Below are positions 1,271 to 15,118 of a DNA stretch of 15,118 bases, in pieces. The stretch is from Synergistaceae bacterium (GTDB taxonomy: Bacteria > Synergistota > Synergistia > Synergistales > Aminobacteriaceae): positions 1 to 15,118 of the forward strand of contig JAITGK010000150.1 in assembly GCA_031280635.1 (NCBI GenBank). Direction: 5' to 3'. A program made the position numbers and the translations under genes. The first letter of the stretch is position 1. Each line of letters starts with the position of its first letter. The notes beneath the pieces were generated by a model that was not told the DNA's origin, did not search any database, and worked only from the letters and a program-made list of their open reading frames with translations.

Positions 1271-2026
1271 ATGATACGAAAAATCATCAAGATTGACGAA
1301 GATAAGTGCGATGGGTGCGGACTGTGCGCCACCGCCTGCCACGAGTCCGCAATAGGCGTAGTGAACGGCAAAGCGAAACTCTTGAGGGACGATTACTGCG
1401 ACGGGCTGGGAAACTGCCTTCCCGCCTGCCCCACGAGAGCTATTTTTTTCGAGGAACGGGAAGCCGCGGAGTACGACGAGGAAGCTGTGAAGAAAAATAT
1501 CAAGGAAAAGAAAAAGACGGCGGCGAAAGGTGGCTGTCCCGGTTCCAACGCCCATACTATTCAGCGAGAAACTTCCCAGGCGTCAGGTAAAATGGCGATT
1601 ACCAGCCGCCTGAATCAATGGCCGATACAGATCAGGCTCGTGCCAATCAACGCGCCGTATTTTGAGAACGCGAACCTGTTGGTATCGGCGGACTGCTGCG
1701 CTTATGCCCAAGGCAATTTTCACGAGGAGTTCATGCGTAACAAGATCACTCTCATTGGTTGCTCCAAGCTGGACAATGTGGATTACAGCGAGAAATTGAC
1801 GGAGATCATCGCGCGCAACAACATCAAATCCGTTACAGTGGTAAGAATGGAAGTCCCCTGTTGCGGGGGCATCGAAAATGCCGCGAAGACCGCGCTTAAG
1901 AATTCCGGCAAGAGTCTCGGAGCCAAGATGATTCCCTGGCGAGTGATCACTCTGTCTACCGGTGGTGAGGTGTTGGAAGACTTTCATAGCGGATTGCGTA
2001 ATTGTGAACACCAAAATAGCGTGTAA
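1271..2026 (+). CDS. Iron-sulfur protein: N-terminal 2x[4Fe-4S] ferredoxin domain fused to a Cys-rich C-terminal domain resembling the MvhD/FlpD hydrogenase delta-subunit family
   Basis: CDGCGLCATAC and CDGLGNCLPACP cluster motifs occur at residues 13-55, followed by a Lys/Glu-rich linker. The C-terminal ~150 aa carry ADCCAY, GCSKLD and VPCCGG motifs that follow the MvhD pattern (hydrophobic-CxxCsY ... mCSgR ... C-C). AGGGAGG lies 8 nt upstream of the ATG. The last ~15 codons come from a repeat element (see 1980..2068). Confidence 0.75.
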   Translation: MIRKIIKIDEDKCDGCGLCATACHESAIGVVNGKAKLLRDDYCDGLGNCLPACPTRAIFFEEREAAEYDEEAVKKNIKEKKKTAAKGGCPGSNAHTIQRETSQASGKMAITSRLNQWPIQIRLVPINAPYFENANLLVSADCCAYAQGNFHEEFMRNKITLIGCSKLDNVDYSEKLTEIIARNNIKSVTVVRMEVPCCGGIENAAKTALKNSGKSLGAKMIPWRVITLSTGGEVLEDFHSGLRNCEHQNSV

Positions 2027-2068
2027 AAAGCAGCTACCGCAAAAGTTTTGTTCATAAAAGAGCCAATG
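1980..2068 (+). repeat. Intergenic repeat element, type II variant (~88 bp), overlapping the 3' end of the ferredoxin CDS
   Basis: Begins catagcggattgcgtaat and ends aaaagagccaatggcccc. The middle (agcgtgtaaaaag...cgcaaaagtttt) matches the 14469..14556 copy. Its termini match those of the type I copies. Confidence 0.6.
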
Positions 2069-2084
2069 GCCCCAGGGTGTGTTT

Positions 2085-2180
2085 TATAGTGGATTGCGTA
2101 ATCACGGCGCGGAAATCAGAGACCAAAAACCTGATATAAACACGGCAAAAACTTTGCGCGGAAAAGAGCCAACGGCTCTA
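2085..2180 (+). repeat. Intergenic repeat element, type I copy B (~96 bp), interrupted/abutted at its 3' end by the IS
   Basis: tatagtggattgcgtaatcacggcgcggaaatcagagaccaaaaacctgatataaacacggcaaaaactttgcgcggaaaagagccaacggctcta. Contains the internal direct repeat GCGCGGAAAtcAGAG / GCGCGGAAAagAGCC and a terminal hairpin AGAGCC-aac-GGCTCT. Confidence 0.85.
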
Positions 2181-2190
2181 GATACTGTCG

Positions 2191-2676
2191 TCACGAGACG
2201 CCGACCCAGAGAGCGACGCGTCTGATACGCGCGGCGGCTAGAAACAATGAGGTGTTTTTCGCGTACCTTGTGGCAATCCCTCGCCAGCGTTTTAAATATA
2301 AAAAAGCGTTTTCAACCAGATGCCTGAGTTTATATAAATATTCGTCATACCGCCGAGGCTCCTTACGCTTCCTCTTCGGCGGTATAACTACCCACATACC
2401 GGCTTCTTTCGCTTCGTTGATAATTCCGCCTCTATCATAAGCGCGATCCGCTATAAGATTTTCAGCGTCTATGCCGCCAATCAGAGCCGCGGCCTGAGCG
2501 CGGTCAGCTCCGGTACCTTCTGTAATATGCATTCTGACTGGCATACCATGCGCGTCCACGGCCGAATGTATCTTTGTGTTGAGCCCCCTTTTGTAACGCT
2601 CATATCCTGATTCCCTCCTCTCGCTCCCGTCGCGTGAGGGTGAACCTTGACGCGCGAGGCGTCTATCATCAGCCAC
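2191..2676 (-). CDS. IS5-family transposase OrfB (DDE catalytic C-terminal part), probably expressed as an OrfAB fusion by a -1 frameshift
   Basis: LNTKIHSAVDAHGMPVRMHITEGTGADRAQAAALIGGIDAENLIADRAYD...LKRWRGIATRYAK is typical IS5-family DDE transposase C-terminus. It overlaps orfA by ~195 nt in the -1 frame. An A4G5 tract on the minus strand (plus coordinates 2584..2592) is the likely slippage site. Confidence 0.75.
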   Translation of the reverse strand: MADDRRLARQGSPSRDGSERRESGYERYKRGLNTKIHSAVDAHGMPVRMHITEGTGADRAQAAALIGGIDAENLIADRAYDRGGIINEAKEAGMWVVIPPKRKRKEPRRYDEYLYKLRHLVENAFLYLKRWRGIATRYAKNTSLFLAAARIRRVALWVGVS

Positions 2677-2954
2677 TCAAAGTCCGGCTCAGTTATCAGC
2701 CGCTCCAGCGGGGACTCCCATATTCCCTTGTCCCTCCATCGGCAATAGCGGCGGCGCTTGGTTTTCCTGCCGCCGTAATCTGGCGGCAGGTCGCGCCAGG
2801 GCGCTCCGGCGCGTAAAATCCAGAATACAGCGTTAATGAACAGTCTGTTATCTCTGACTTTCCCTCCCCATGCGCCCTCCCTGCCGGGAAAGCGCGGCAC
2901 CAGAAGGTTCCAGACTCTGTCTGATATATCGTGGCGGTGACGCGCGTTATCCAT
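2481..2954 (-). CDS. IS5-family transposase OrfA (N-terminal DUF4096-like part)
   Basis: MDNARHRHDISDRVWNLLVPRFPGREGAWGGKVRDNRLFINAVFWILRAGAPWRDLPPDYGG...RWRDKGIW is the conserved N-terminal module of IS5/IS427-group transposases. RBS GGGGGAG lies 6 nt upstream. Confidence 0.8.
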   Translation of the reverse strand: MDNARHRHDISDRVWNLLVPRFPGREGAWGGKVRDNRLFINAVFWILRAGAPWRDLPPDYGGRKTKRRRYCRWRDKGIWESPLERLITEPDFEWLMIDASRVKVHPHATGARGGNQDMSVTKGGSTQRYIRPWTRMVCQSECILQKVPELTALRPRL

Positions 2955-3049
2955 ATATTACTCCCCCTGCGCTGTTGTATTTTATGGAGAGATAATAACA
3001 TGATAAATGTCTCGTGACGACAGTATCTAGGTTTTCAGCAGCGGCACAA

Positions 3050-3604
3050 ATGAGCGACGGGACAGGTAAAGGCGGCGCGCTTCTGGCGCTGGATTGTAGT
3101 TTGAAGCGGACCAACGCCGCCGTTCTCTCGCTTTCGGAAGGCGAATTGTTGGCGGTGAAACGGCTTGACATCGGGCGGCGGCAAGTGGTGGAACTCCCCT
3201 TAGCCATGGAGGGCCTCCTTGCCGAGACGGGGAGGAGCTTCGGAGACTTGGGGCTTGTGGCCGTGACCAACGGCCCCGGCTACTTTACGGGTATCCGCGT
3301 GGGAGTCTCTTACGGGGCAGCGCTGGCCCACGGGTTGGGCCTGAAAATCGCGCCGGCCTTCACACTTCACATGCTGACTTTCCCCTGGCTCTCTCAAGCC
3401 AAGACCGTCCTCGTTTTCGCCGATCCCCCCTATAACCAGGGTTGGGGGAAAACGCTGCCTCACACAAACGACCTGGAAAAAATCCTGAAGCGAGACGGGG
3501 TGCTGGTGATGGAATACTCAGCGCGGGAGGCGCTTGATGTCCCCCCCGGTTTGGGTCGTAACGAACACCTGCGCCTACCGCGAGACGGTCGAATGAAAAA
3601 GTAA
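3050..3604 (+). CDS. tsaB: tRNA threonylcarbamoyladenosine biosynthesis protein TsaB (YeaZ family), short form; start uncertain (in-frame ATG at 3014 lies inside the IS inverted repeat)
   Basis: ALLALDCS...AVLSLSEGELLAVKRLDIGRRQVVELPLAMEGLLAETGRSFGDLGLVAVTNGPGYFTGIRVGVSYGAALAHGLGLKIAPAFTLHMLT matches the YeaZ/TsaB core (ILAIDTS..., GRGPGSFTG[IV]RIG). VLVFADPPYNQGW aligns to the VLAAIDARMGEVYW region. The 184-aa length is at the short end for the family. Confidence 0.6.
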   Translation: MSDGTGKGGALLALDCSLKRTNAAVLSLSEGELLAVKRLDIGRRQVVELPLAMEGLLAETGRSFGDLGLVAVTNGPGYFTGIRVGVSYGAALAHGLGLKIAPAFTLHMLTFPWLSQAKTVLVFADPPYNQGWGKTLPHTNDLEKILKRDGVLVMEYSAREALDVPPGLGRNEHLRLPRDGRMKK

Positions 3605-3795
3605 CCGCAACTTAGTAGGAGGTAATCGCAACCTGAGGGAATTAGGATTGCGTTTAACAATGCAAAGCGTTAGAGAGTGAAAATATAAAGTAGATTTGAA
3701 AAAGTAACCGCCGCTTTGAAAGAGCAAGCGCAATGCTGGAAAAGTCGGAAAAAATCCTATTTTTACTTTTCAGCACTAATTTCTCAACAATTTAG

Positions 3796-3838
3796 ATCGC
3801 CGCGTTGATATACTTCGCGGCGGTTTTATTTTTCTTTT
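3796..3838 (+). terminator. Rho-independent terminator (CGCCGCG-ttgatatactt-CGCGGCG followed by GTTTTATTTTTCTTTT)
   Basis: A 7-bp GC stem with an 11-nt loop is followed by a T-rich tract on the plus strand only. It lies ~190 nt downstream of tsaB. Confidence 0.6.
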
Positions 3839-4061
3839 CCCGGAAAAACGCGTCTCGTTTTGCCTATACGGAAGAAATTTTGGGCACAACAAAGCAAAGC
3901 TTGGCGATTTACCAATTTTTTCGCAAATCTTATCGCAATCCCTCTTTTTAACCTATTCTCGGAACCCATCATTTCCCCAGCCACTACAACTTTACCGCCC
4001 GTTTTGTTTTATGCGCACGGCAATTCCGGCTTCAATATGTGGTTTTAGACAGGAAAAAACG

Positions 4062-4136
4062 TTAAAGACCGGAAGAATAAAATCCCACCCACCTCCAATT
4101 ATAGTATAGATGATCAAGATCAAGCGCTAAAACCAT
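4062..4136 (-). CDS. Candidate small protein/leader peptide, 24 aa (MVLALDLDHLYYNWRWVGFYSSGL)
   Basis: An ATG is preceded by AGAAGGAGGTG with an 8-nt spacer, a near-perfect RBS. It is driven by the near-consensus promoter at 4195..4221. It falls below the 60-aa cutoff of the supplied ORF track. Confidence 0.35.
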   Translation of the reverse strand: MVLALDLDHLYYNWRWVGFYSSGL

Positions 4137-4194
4137 ATTTTTTTCACCTCCTTCTATATCATTATCATTTTAGCTTTCAGTTTTATTTTTACCG

Positions 4195-4221
4195 ATTATA
4201 TCATAAATTCTCTTTTGTCAA
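4195..4221 (-). promoter_or_regulatory. Near-consensus sigma70 promoter on the minus strand: TTGACA-N15-TGaTATAAT
   Basis: The minus strand reads ccattgacaaaagagaatttatgatataatcgg. The -35 TTGACA is the complement of 4216..4221 and the extended -10 TGATATAAT is the complement of 4195..4203. The promoter points toward the 24-aa ORF. Confidence 0.5.
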
Positions 4222-4289
4222 TGGACTTGTTTATTTCCCAATTTTAACCTTATAGCGGGTTGCGGTAATGCTAGTATCCGCAAATCCCC

Positions 4290-4317
4290 TATAATGAAAG
4301 GCAATTCATAAAGGAGG
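4290..4317 (+). promoter_or_regulatory. TATAAT -10 box and AAAGGAGG RBS upstream of the Cdc48-like ATPase gene
   Basis: TATAAT lies at 4290..4295. AAAGGAGG at 4310..4317 ends 8 nt before the ATG at 4326. The upstream motif tatagcgggttgcggtaat (4248..4266) resembles the repeat-element 5' end. Confidence 0.45.
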
Positions 4318-4325
4318 AGTTAGGC

Positions 4326-6452
4326 ATGTTCAAGGTAAAAGAGGCCAGCACGGGCGACGCGCACAAGGGCATAGCGCGGATGGACGTCGCCGACATGGCG
4401 ATACTGGGCCTGTCCGAGGGGCAGATCGCCGAAATCTCCGGGAAGAAGACCACCGCCGCCCGTGTCCACGCGCTGAACCCGTCCGATGGGGAGAACTCCG
4501 GGAAGCGCTTCCTCCAAATCGACGGACTGATTCGCGAGAACGCCGTTGTCCTGTTGGAGGACACAGTGACGGTTAGGCGCGCGGAACATCATTTCGCTGG
4601 CAGCGTCACTTTACAACCCCTCACCTCCACCGCCCTGACAGACAAGGAGCGCGACGCGCCCTACATCCTGTCGCTGATGGAGGGTATGCCCCTCACAGCA
4701 GGCGACCGGGTACGGCTCAACCTCTTCGGAACGCGCGTCTGCGACTTCCGCGTGACGGAGACCACGCCGGAGGGAGCCGTGGTGGTCAGCAAGGTCACGT
4801 ATCTGAACCTTTTGAAGAACGCCAAGATCGCTCAGCCGAAAAAAATTTCCTACGAGGACATCGGCGGCCTGGGTTCCCAGATACGCCACATCCGCGAGAT
4901 GATCGAGCTGCCTCTGCGCTTCCCTCAGGTGTTTGAGCGACTGGGCATCCAGCCCCCCAAGGGCGTGTTGCTCTATGGCCCCCCTGGTACGGGCAAAACG
5001 GTCATCGCCCGCGCCGTGGCTAACGAGACCGACGCCTGGTTCACCCACATCTCCGGCCCGGAGATCATCGGGAAGTTCTATGGTGAAAGCGAGGAACGTC
5101 TGCGCAACATCTTCGAGGAGGCCCAGTCCCGCGCGCCATCCATCGTATTCATCGACGAGATCGACGCCATTGCCCCCAAACGGGAGGACATGGGTGGGGA
5201 AAAGCAAGTGGAGCGCCGAGTGGTGGCCCAACTCCTGGCCCTGATGGACGGCCTAGAGTCCCGCGGGCAAATTGTGGTCATCGGCGCGACCAACATCCCC
5301 AACTCCCTGGACCCGGCCCTGCGCCGTCCAGGACGCTTCGACCGCGAGATCTCCATTCCCATCCCCGACCGCAAGGGGCGATACGAAATTCTCCAAATTC
5401 ACACGCGGGGAATGCCCCTGGCCCAGGAGTCTGGAGCGGACGCGGTGGACTTGAAGCGAGTGGCCGATCTTTCCCACGGATTTGTGGGCGCGGACCTGGA
5501 GGTCCTGGCCAAGGAAGCGGCCATGGCCTGCGTGCGCGACGTTCTGCCTCACGTAAACCTCCAGACCCAGGAGATACCCTACGAGAAAGTCTCGACTCTG
5601 GAGGTGAGAATGAGCCACTTCATGTCCGCCCTGATGGAAATAGAGCCCTCCGCCATACGCGAGGTTTTTGTGGAGATACCAGACGTGACCTGGAACGACG
5701 TGGGCGGTTTGGACGCCGTCAAGGAAGAGCTCGTCAACGCCGTTCAGTGGCCCTTGCAGAGGCCGGAACTCTTTGAGCGCTACGCCATTCAGCCGCCTAA
5801 GGGGATTTTGCTGCATGGCCCATCGGGCACGGGGAAAACGCTGCTGGCTAAGGCTCTAGCCAAGGAGAGCGGAATCAACTTCATCTCGGTGAAGGGCCCA
5901 TCTCTGATGTCAAAGTACGTAGGCGAGTCGGAGCGGGCCATCCGTGAGGTGTTCCGCACGGCGAAACAGGCGGCCCCGTCGATTCTCTATTTCGACGAGA
6001 TCGAAACCCTGGTTCCCGTGCGGGGGCGTGACGCAGGCGGCGCGGCGGCCTTTACGGAGCGGGTCATCGGGCAGTTCCTGGCGGAGATGAGCGGCATTGA
6101 GGAGCTGACCGGCGTGGTGGTTCTAGCCACCACCAATCGGGTCGATTTGGTAGATCCAGCGCTTCTGACCGCGGGGCGCTTCGATCTGGTGCTAGAGCTT
6201 CCCCTGCCCGACCCGGCCGCGCGGGAGGCAATCTTCGGTATCGAACTGCGCAAAAAACCCCTGGCGTCCGACGTGGACGTGAAGGAACTGGCGCGTCTGA
6301 CCGAGGGACGTAGCGGCGCGGACATCGCCTTCGTCTGCCGCAAGGCTGCCATGCTGGCCCTGCGCGAGCGATTTTCTCAGGACATGGCGGAGTTTCACGT
6401 GGGTCGGGAACACTTCAACGCCGCGCTCTCATTGATCGCGCTCCGACGCTAG
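4326..6452 (+). CDS. Cdc48/VAT-type AAA+ ATPase (CDC48 N-domain plus tandem D1 and D2 AAA modules)
   Basis: The 708-aa product has an N-terminal double-psi-barrel-like region ([36 protein letters not shown]). It has two Walker A sites (GPPGTGKT at D1, GPSGTGKT at D2) and Walker B sites ([17 protein letters not shown]). SRH/arginine-finger regions ([23 protein letters not shown]) are present. Confidence 0.9.
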
Positions 6453-14556: not shown

Positions 14557-15118
14557 AGAAATTATATTTTTTAAAGTGAAAATCCAAAAAATCTATTCTA
14601 TTATAGCAGATCGCGTAAATTTTGAACATATGGCGTTTTTCATAATCATACACAGAAATAAGAGGCTAAAAACCAGACCTCAATGACTATCGGCCAAAAC
14701 CGGTAGGTTAAATAGCTAATAACAACAACTTAAGCGTTTATGAGTGGGATTTCCTGTTGTGATGATACTTAGCTCTCCTCGAAGTAAGCAACCTTTCCAC
14801 AAAACGTCCCGGCCGTATGGGCACGACGGATTTTTCAATCTCAATGGCAATAATATCCAAAGCGCGAAGACGCTCCTCTGTTGAGGTCAACAGGATGCCG
14901 CGAGATGAGCCCGGAGTGTCGCGATAATCTGGTTCAAATTGGCCGCGTACTCGTATTTGTTATCTTTGCCGGCGCGTTTCTTTCGTATGGCCATGTTGGC
15001 TTCGCCTTTAGAGCTCCTAACATAACCCACCTGTTTGGGCCTTCAGGCTATAAAGCAATTTTTATAAATGCAGTATTTCAAAGTAAACTTTATCAAGATA
15101 GCATGGTTATGATAGATA

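Follow-up and report, generated by a model that had tools for sequence, protein, structure and literature searches.

Insertion sequences (ISs) of the IS427 group, within the IS5 family, have a pair of overlapping open reading frames (ORFs) and a conserved frameshift motif, and the aspartate-aspartate-glutamate (DDE) triad of their transposase is complete only in the fusion of the two products (PMC3281130). The captured elements of this group measure 832-853 bp, with inverted repeats of 14-21 bp and direct repeats of 2 bp (PMC3281130, Table 2). Here, we describe an element with these features on a contig of a metagenome-assembled Synergistaceae bacterium, which was studied over its whole length of 15,118 bp and is called the window in the following. 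The element lies between a ~100-nt repeat and an ORF that is publicly annotated as tsaB. The explanation that we consider very probable as a whole is an ordinary insertion of an IS427-group element at a CTAG tetranucleotide, beside a remnant in which the first half of tsaB is fused to the tail of rsmD.

Our view of tsaB and of the copies of the IS is that of the 15,118-bp contig, rather than that of the whole metagenome-assembled genome (MAG). The nearest relatives that could be retrieved come from termite-gut metagenomes, and the relatives returned by a metagenome scan were all at 67% identity or below. Database loci and proteins are referred to by L and P numbers where they have to be told apart, and the coordinates of the features are collected in Table 1.

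Transposase and family assignment

The two ORFs of the element, orfA and orfB, overlap and are both located on the minus strand between the arms of the terminal inverted repeat. In Pfam, orfA matches PF13340 (DUF4096, E = 5e-20) and orfB matches PF01609 (DDE_Tnp_1, E = 7e-15). Both also score above the NCBIfam cutoff of 110 bits for NF033580, "IS5 family transposase", a profile of length 258 that is covered from position 2 to 128 by orfA (112.6 bits) and from 111 to 257 by orfB (125.1 bits). Together with the perfect inverted repeat, these matches confirm the IS5-family assignment and the intact structure proposed in an earlier annotation made from the letters of the window alone, which we call the sequence-only reading.

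The orfB frame is -1 relative to orfA, and the join is found at ACA-AAA-GGG-GGC (2594-2581 on the minus strand), the orfB frame being in use from ~2592 on. The fused protein aligns end to end with IS5-family transposases of 245-262 amino acids (aa) and presents the Y208-R211-E215-K222 signature. When this fused protein is aligned with 102 homologues, residues D98, D170, E215, Y208, R211, and K222 each occupy a column with a conservation of 97% or more. Since D98 is contributed by orfA and the remaining catalytic residues by orfB, only the frameshift product would be a complete enzyme.

Four copies of related elements (L065-L068), which diverge by 20-25% elsewhere, share the frameshift window ACAAAAGGGGGCTCAACACAAAG without any change, and a fifth one (L002) has it nearly unchanged, the divergence of all these elements outside it being 20-30%. 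In addition, OrfA has a length of 157-162 aa and ends at the same place in more than 100 distinct relatives. The conservation of this frameshift window, together with that of the OrfA length, argues for the frameshift as a feature of the family and not a lesion, and we interpret it as a conserved programmed -1 frameshift.

The length of the element, its two-ORF layout, and the 2-bp duplication (see below) match those of the IS427 group, and its assignment to this group within the IS5 family relies on these correspondences. The nearest relatives in the database are 72% identical in the full-length transposase, 81% in OrfA, and 79% in the DNA of the element. Under the usual ISfinder criteria, the window element would merit a new IS name. 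In the plasmid collection, only distant IS5-family matches were retrieved (65-68% identity), none of them with an informative IS name.

Ends of the element, target site, and the adjacent repeat

An inverted repeat of 22 nt with 100% complementarity is formed by positions 2178-2199 and 3009-3030. This palindrome is composed of perfect 19-nt inverted repeats, the duplicated TA, and the C/G of the CTAG target. The window contains the 19-nt core GATACTGTCGTCACGAGAC at these two locations only, and 200 shuffles gave an expectation of zero. The sequence-only reading had delimited the element at 2177-3030; the IS and its 22-nt repeat are real, but position 2177 lies one base outside the repeat.

As the sequence at the ends is CTAG-ATACTG...CAGTAT-CTAG, three readings are possible, namely a 4-bp duplication, a 2-bp TA duplication within CTAG, or a CTAG located inside the inverted repeat. 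From the window copy alone, a CTAG target leaves the 2-bp and the 4-bp duplication indistinguishable. In the copies of a related IS, the identity ends at GATAGTG...CACTATC, with TA on either side. By analogy with this IS, the window element would extend from 2181 to 3027, with the TA repeats at 2179-2180 and 3028-3029 representing the duplication.

The target rule was derived from this related IS (P0347, 71% identical in OrfA), for which ~9 sites were recovered and eight were usable: five at CTAG, two at TTAG, and one at CTAA, with TA duplicated. The outer bases can differ between the two sides, as in L069 (TTAG on the left, CTAG on the right) and L070 (CTAG on the left, CTAA on the right). 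Because the 4-mers are unlike at these two sites, the duplication comprises TA only and the target rule is YTAR, so that a 4-bp CTAG duplication as in IS5 could be discarded. These multi-site data therefore provide a clean rule for this IS clade, TA being duplicated within YTAR. CTAG also borders the IS ends in L001, L003, L065, L066, and L067. The preference for CTAG suggested in the sequence-only reading agrees with this rule, and the empty site that it predicted, ...GGCTCTAGGTTTTC..., follows from a TA duplication in CTAG, by the same analogy.

The locus L003, from a Gallionella MAG, contains at 3545-3895 an internally deleted derivative of ~350 bp, with identical 19-nt ends and CTAG on both sides. 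It looks like a non-autonomous relative of the window IS, similar to a miniature inverted-repeat transposable element (MITE).

To the left of the IS lie two tandem copies of the ~100-nt repeat (A and B in Table 1). Further copies are found at 418-516 and 14470-14558, and a weaker one at ~14599-14700, so that this intergenic repeat occurs in dispersed as well as tandem form. Copy A provides the final codons of the Fer4 ORF together with its stop codon. The repeat is also present in two Synergistaceae contigs, L022 (3322-3414) and L032 (~3717-3818), whose TsaB is only 46-58% identical. Comparison of four copies in the window and of these two in relatives shows a conserved 5′ end, TATAGYGG..TTGCGTAAT, and a nearly invariant 3′ end, AAAAGAGCCAACGGCTCTAA. 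The 6-bp 3′ hairpin is the sole consensus structure obtained with RNAalifold, and it shows no covariation. Searches in Rfam did not retrieve any match to the repeat, either at the gathering threshold or at E <= 1, and the idea of a known RNA was dropped on both grounds. The first 11 nt may resemble the start of the inverted repeat of the Neisseria Correia element. A smaller possibility is that the repeat represents a mobile or regulatory element of Synergistaceae that has not yet been described.

The sequence-only reading had placed the left junction at the last base(s) of repeat copy B, and the junction indeed falls within the last conserved bases of this copy, the IS target overlapping the last two paired bases of its hairpin. 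At the target position, copy B alone presents CTAG, the others having CCAG, ATAA, or CTAA. Recognition of the repeat or of its 3′ hairpin by the IS, whether through structure or through sequence, beyond this tetranucleotide is quite improbable. Such targeting is known from ISs of another family, IS1397 and ISKpn1, which use repeats of the repetitive extragenic palindromic (REP) type and have all their copies within them. The window IS resembles these elements in its location at the hairpin of an intergenic repeat, and its insertion at the last paired bases of a conserved hairpin would fit the same behavior. In contrast to them, it is known from one copy and thus offers one instance only, and its relatives insert at plain YTAR sites with unrelated flanks, none of which, among those of related ISs in other metagenomes, has a hairpin of the repeat type. 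Moreover, no CTAG is present in the other three repeat copies of the window, which are unoccupied, and CTAG itself is rare here, with 16 occurrences (three of them within the IS and its duplication) against 57 expected from the base composition of the contig. About 14 CTAG sites remain outside the IS in 14 kb, some of them intergenic, such as that at 4271 upstream of the gene starting at 4326. The more economical reading is that the CTAG tetranucleotide would explain the insertion site, the hairpin not being required.

The sequence-only reading also described the element as recent and probably still mobile. Its structure is complete, as stated, but its current mobility is unproven. No second copy of the window IS was found: OrfA is a singleton on one contig among ~15 billion proteins, and a scan of the GTDB representative genomes recovered the 19-mer in only three unrelated proteobacterial MAGs, at IS ends. 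The OrfA search returned no close copy, the next relative being 81% identical. Of the 111 columns with a conservation of 90% or more, the transposase deviates at 10 (for instance W63R), which places it in the top 9% of the family, and five lineage-specific changes are concentrated in a ten-residue stretch of the DNA-binding region (DYGDWKNTHRRF to DYGGRKTKRRRY). As to age, perfect 19-nt repeats together with a 2-bp duplication hold almost no information.

The chimeric tsaB-rsmD ORF

The ORF to the right of the IS (3050-3604, 184 codons) matches the TsaB profile TIGR03725 at positions 1-115 of 212 and then the RsmD profile TIGR00095 at positions 120-168 of 194. TIGR03725 describes the dimerisation subunit of the N6-threonylcarbamoyladenosine (t6A) complex, and TIGR00095 the 16S rRNA m2G966 methyltransferase. 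The TsaB score reaches 76.7 bits from the N-terminal half alone, above the NCBIfam cutoff of 69.3, which accounts for the public annotation of the ORF as TsaB (MDR2529425.1). The RsmD score is 17.1 bits, far below the cutoff of 117.5 that would correspond to the full SAM-dependent methyltransferase fold. The nearest intact TsaB is P0002 (MDR2527523.1, 230 aa), with 84% identity across the initial two thirds of the query, and the tail of the ORF (residues ~120-165) is 85% identical to the RsmD proteins P0084, P0086, and P0111, which are encoded on the same 38.8-kb (38,785-bp) contig as P0002, four accession numbers apart. At the DNA level, the homology extends over 3048-3400 to the tsaB of L005 and L007 (75%) and over 3413-3586 to the rsmD of L004 (86%), placing the junction between 3400 and 3413, in ...GTCCTCGTT|TTCGCCGAT.... 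In comparison with solved TsaB/YeaZ structures, whose chains have 206-251 aa, the match is limited to the first ~97-129 residues; the second TsaB subdomain is missing, and the ORF is not a two-subdomain TsaB of ~205-250 aa. The rsmD part contains an extra C, with C7 in the window (3541-3547) against C6 in L004, so that the last 19 codons of the ORF are outside the RsmD frame.

The genomic context has changed as well. In ~30 related loci (all those with enough upstream sequence), the start of tsaB adjoins tsaE or overlaps with it, acpS usually coming before; no tsaE was found anywhere in the window. A residual tsaE in the 19 nt that separate the ATG from the IS was considered, and by eye the similarity to the relatives is not convincing. 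The relatives present a GGAG-type Shine-Dalgarno sequence before the ATG; no Shine-Dalgarno sequence precedes the ATG at 3050, where the window reads GGTTTTCAGCAGCGGCACAA. In the retained 118 residues, the window lineage has accumulated 8-11 unique amino-acid changes, against 1-6 in P0002 (seven outgroups), with chi-square values of 5.3 (outgroup P0004) and 8.3 (outgroup P0010) in a Tajima-type test by our own arithmetic. These changes include W to R in LKWTN and Y to H in ALAYGLG, both residues being conserved in all aligned homologues. The truncation, the fusion to rsmD, the frameshift, the lost operon, the missing ribosome-binding site, and the fast evolution together indicate that this ORF is a decaying tsaB'-'rsmD fragment rather than an essential gene that would require a promoter.

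A related termite-gut population offers a comparable case: its tsaB (P0003, 160 aa) shows, in L007 at ~440-450 against L005 at ~3620-3635, a frameshifting deletion of 14 nt just past codon ~117. The proximity of this deletion to the codon at which the window junction occurs points to a second, independent disruption of tsaB in the lineage. We attach little likelihood to the wider possibilities that this lineage of termite-gut Synergistaceae has truly lost tsaB and would then do without the canonical TsaB-TsaD-TsaE route to t6A, that the N-terminal TsaB subdomain alone suffices, or that the repeat is an undescribed element.

The sequence-only reading had seen an IS inserted 20 bp upstream of tsaB, and the distance is nearly right, the ATG at 3050 lying 19 nt past the right CTAG, but the ORF is not an intact tsaB. 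It had further proposed that this essential gene is functional and now transcribed from the IS, by read-out or a hybrid promoter, or else started inside the inverted repeat, which we regard as highly improbable. The end of the IS is indeed only ~20 nt from the ATG, the ORF is open for 184 codons and scores as TsaB in NCBIfam, and outward or hybrid promoters carried by ISs are well documented in other IS groups (PMC3281130). Nevertheless, what would be expressed lacks the C-terminal half of TsaB, ends in a frameshifted piece of rsmD, has neither tsaE nor a Shine-Dalgarno sequence, and has changed faster at conserved residues. As the transposase gene occupies the opposite strand and is directed away from the ORF, read-through into the latter is impossible. 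In a consensus scan, promoter-like hexamers at this end of the IS (2979-3029) appeared on the minus strand only, as expected for the transposase promoter, and no promoter-like site was found on the plus strand either at 2990-3050, and thus near the start of the ORF (3000-3050), or at any point before 3805. The in-frame ATG proposed at 3014 is in fact a GTG codon, without a ribosome-binding site. Finally, in the only experiment found for the IS427 group, its member IS1248 did not confer resistance when located upstream of a promoterless tetA (PMC3281130), so that a member of the same group failed to activate a promoterless gene. The IS thus probably does not drive the ORF, which, from these sequence features, would not be expressed.

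For annotation, MDR2529425.1 is a chimera, and analyses of pathways or of completeness in this MAG should leave it out of the t6A genes. As a lesson of method, the argument of an "essential gene beside an IS" fails once the gene is compared with intact homologues.

The remnant is followed by 720 nt of AT-rich non-coding sequence (3605-4325), with a G+C content of 39-41% against 56% overall. Two units ~103 nt apart, each starting with TGAAAAAGTAACCGC, are found in this stretch, together with a terminator-like CGCCGCG...CGCGGCGG and a T-run near 3800-3835. A second, degenerate IS was considered at 3917-3944, where there is a 28-nt similarity, and was rejected, as tblastn with the transposase found nothing there.

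Order of events and comparison with known elements

In the explanation that we prefer, ordinary DDE transposition would have brought the 847-bp element into a CTAG, with duplication of the central TA. The transposase would be made only upon a -1 slip at the A-AAA-G/GGGGG window, joining OrfA, with the DNA-binding part and the first Asp, to OrfB, with the second Asp and the Glu. The choice of the site would reflect the rarity of CTAG in the genome and its presence at that position in copy B alone, the surroundings being dispensable. The first half of tsaB would have been joined to the tail of rsmD by a deletion and cut off from the tsaE-tsaB operon, leaving a fast-evolving fragment without a ribosome-binding site, and the IS would not be required to drive an essential gene. 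The insertion would then most likely have been neutral, the stretch of this termite-gut-type Synergistaceae genome having been rearranged before.

Several points speak against this explanation. The window IS is known from a single copy, and its target preference is taken from relatives that are 71-81% identical in OrfA. The extra C of the rsmD part is located in a homopolymer and may be a sequencing error. NCBI calls the ORF TsaB, with a score above the cutoff, and its N-terminal TsaB subdomain is complete, so that some residual function could persist. As tsaB was seen only in the contig at hand, on which our reading is based, an intact copy elsewhere is conceivable. Moreover, the IS is located exactly at the tsaE-tsaB synteny break, which it could have caused instead of arriving later.

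This last point leads to a real, if doubtful, possibility that fits our explanation in all but the order of events, namely that the IS itself brought about the rearrangement. In this case, either two copies recombined or a deletion occurred next to the IS, so that tsaE and all that lay upstream were removed and the repeat array was joined to tsaB'. The synteny conserved in ~30 relatives is lost inside the 20 nt from the IS to the ATG, and IS427-group elements form cointegrates. Two pairs of loci with related IS427-group elements (L065 with L066, and L071 with L075) share the left flank and have different right flanks, which shows that either such rearrangements or joins made by the assembly over multicopy ISs are frequent in these data. 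In addition, since every copy is bordered by TA within YTAR, matching flanks, and with them the "duplications", are no proof of a simple insertion. In contrast, there is no second copy on record with which the IS could have recombined, and the tsaB'/'rsmD junction, 380 bp away, is not IS-associated, requiring at least one deletion without the IS.

The same pairs of contigs, with equal left and different right flanks in similar assemblies, also bear on a reading that we find unlikely, in which the contig is an assembly artefact: a multicopy IS would have been collapsed and two unrelated flanks joined over it, so that tsaB' and the repeat array would not be true neighbors. The window is a whole 15-kb MAG contig and its synteny break coincides with the IS, as this reading would predict. 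However, assemblers usually break at multicopy ISs instead of bridging them, and OrfA is a singleton in the protein collection. Nor would tsaB be rescued: because the truncation and the fusion to rsmD are outside the IS, neither an IS-caused rearrangement nor an assembly join restores the gene. In the explanation that we prefer, the anatomy of the IS, its family features, the target rule of its relatives, and the chimeric ORF are thus observed, and the neutrality of the insertion, the silence of the ORF, and the order of events are inferred.

Other features of the window are unrelated to the IS. Perfect short tandem arrays are located near the contig ends, (TGTGGCCC)n at 1-118 and (CCTGGCT)n at 14310-14402, and are the probable reason why the assembly stops there. 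A full-length match to the PyrR-binding RNA leader RF00515 (12666-12778, minus strand; 50.5 bits against a gathering threshold of 54) lies at the 5′ end of a pyrR-pyrB-pyrC-pyrF cluster, upstream of and overlapping the annotated start of pyrR. Between a phosphoribosyltransferase gene and pyrF, there is an ORF of 456 aa without a Pfam match (7407-8777, minus strand).

Table 1. Coordinates of the insertion sequence, its flanking repeat copies, and the adjoining chimeric ORF in the window.
Feature	Positions	Strand	Description and basis
Insertion sequence proper	2181-3027	-	847 bp; assigned to IS5 family, IS427 group; inverted repeat and comparison with related IS
Transposase-distal terminal inverted repeat (IRR)	2181-2199	+	GATACTGTCGTCACGAGAC; inverted repeat search
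Transposase-proximal terminal inverted repeat (IRL)	3009-3027	-	overlapped by minus-strand promoter-like hexamers
Left TA target duplication (putative)	2179-2180	.	forms left CTAG with C2178; direct reading and relatives
Right TA target duplication (putative)	3028-3029	.	forms right CTAG with G3030; direct reading and relatives
orfA	2481-2954 (2954->2481)	-	157 aa; DUF4096 DNA-binding part, first catalytic Asp D98
orfB frame	2191-2676 (2676->2191)	-	DDE_Tnp_1; D170, E215, Y-2-R-3-E-6-K motif
Predicted -1 frameshift window	2581-2594	-	ACAAAAGGGGGCTC; joins orfA to orfB, giving a 254-aa transposase
Repeat copy A	1982-2081	+	in tandem with B; CCAG where B has CTAG; supplies 3′ end of Fer4 ORF 1271-2026
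Repeat copy B	2082-2181	+	3′ hairpin AGAGCC-AAC-GGCTCT at 2165-2179; last bases CTAG, the IS target
tsaB' remnant	3050-3412	+	N-terminal ~118 codons only; TIGR03725 positions 1-115 of 212
'rsmD remnant	3413-3590	+	last third of gene including DPPY motif, in frame with tsaB'; ORF end 3604

Among the described elements, IS5 itself, of the IS5 group, shares with the window element the family and a DDE transposase, and it prefers CTAG/YTAR targets. In contrast to the window element, which needs a frameshift and whose relatives duplicate only TA, IS5-group elements are of greater size, with one ORF and a 4-bp duplication. For these elements, repeats of 4 bp, CTAG, are quoted (PMC9241763). The ISThsp6 and ISThsp20 families of Thiomonas (the NCBI names of P0138 and P0139) have transposases of 254 aa containing PF13340 and PF01609 and aligned over 100% of the fused protein, with an amino-acid identity of only 66%.

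A close correspondence is found with IS1248, ISPaes1, and ISPaes2 of Paracoccus, from the IS427 group (PMC3281130). Their length of 832-853 bp compares with 847 bp here and their inverted repeats of 14-21 bp with 19 nt, and they likewise have an overlapping pair of ORFs with a -1 frameshift motif, a DDE triad completed through the fusion, and a 2-bp duplication. The window element differs from these Paracoccus elements in its sequence and in its host, a Synergistaceae MAG. The finding matters little for biology at large: the element is a further member of the IS427 group and behaves as is known for this group.

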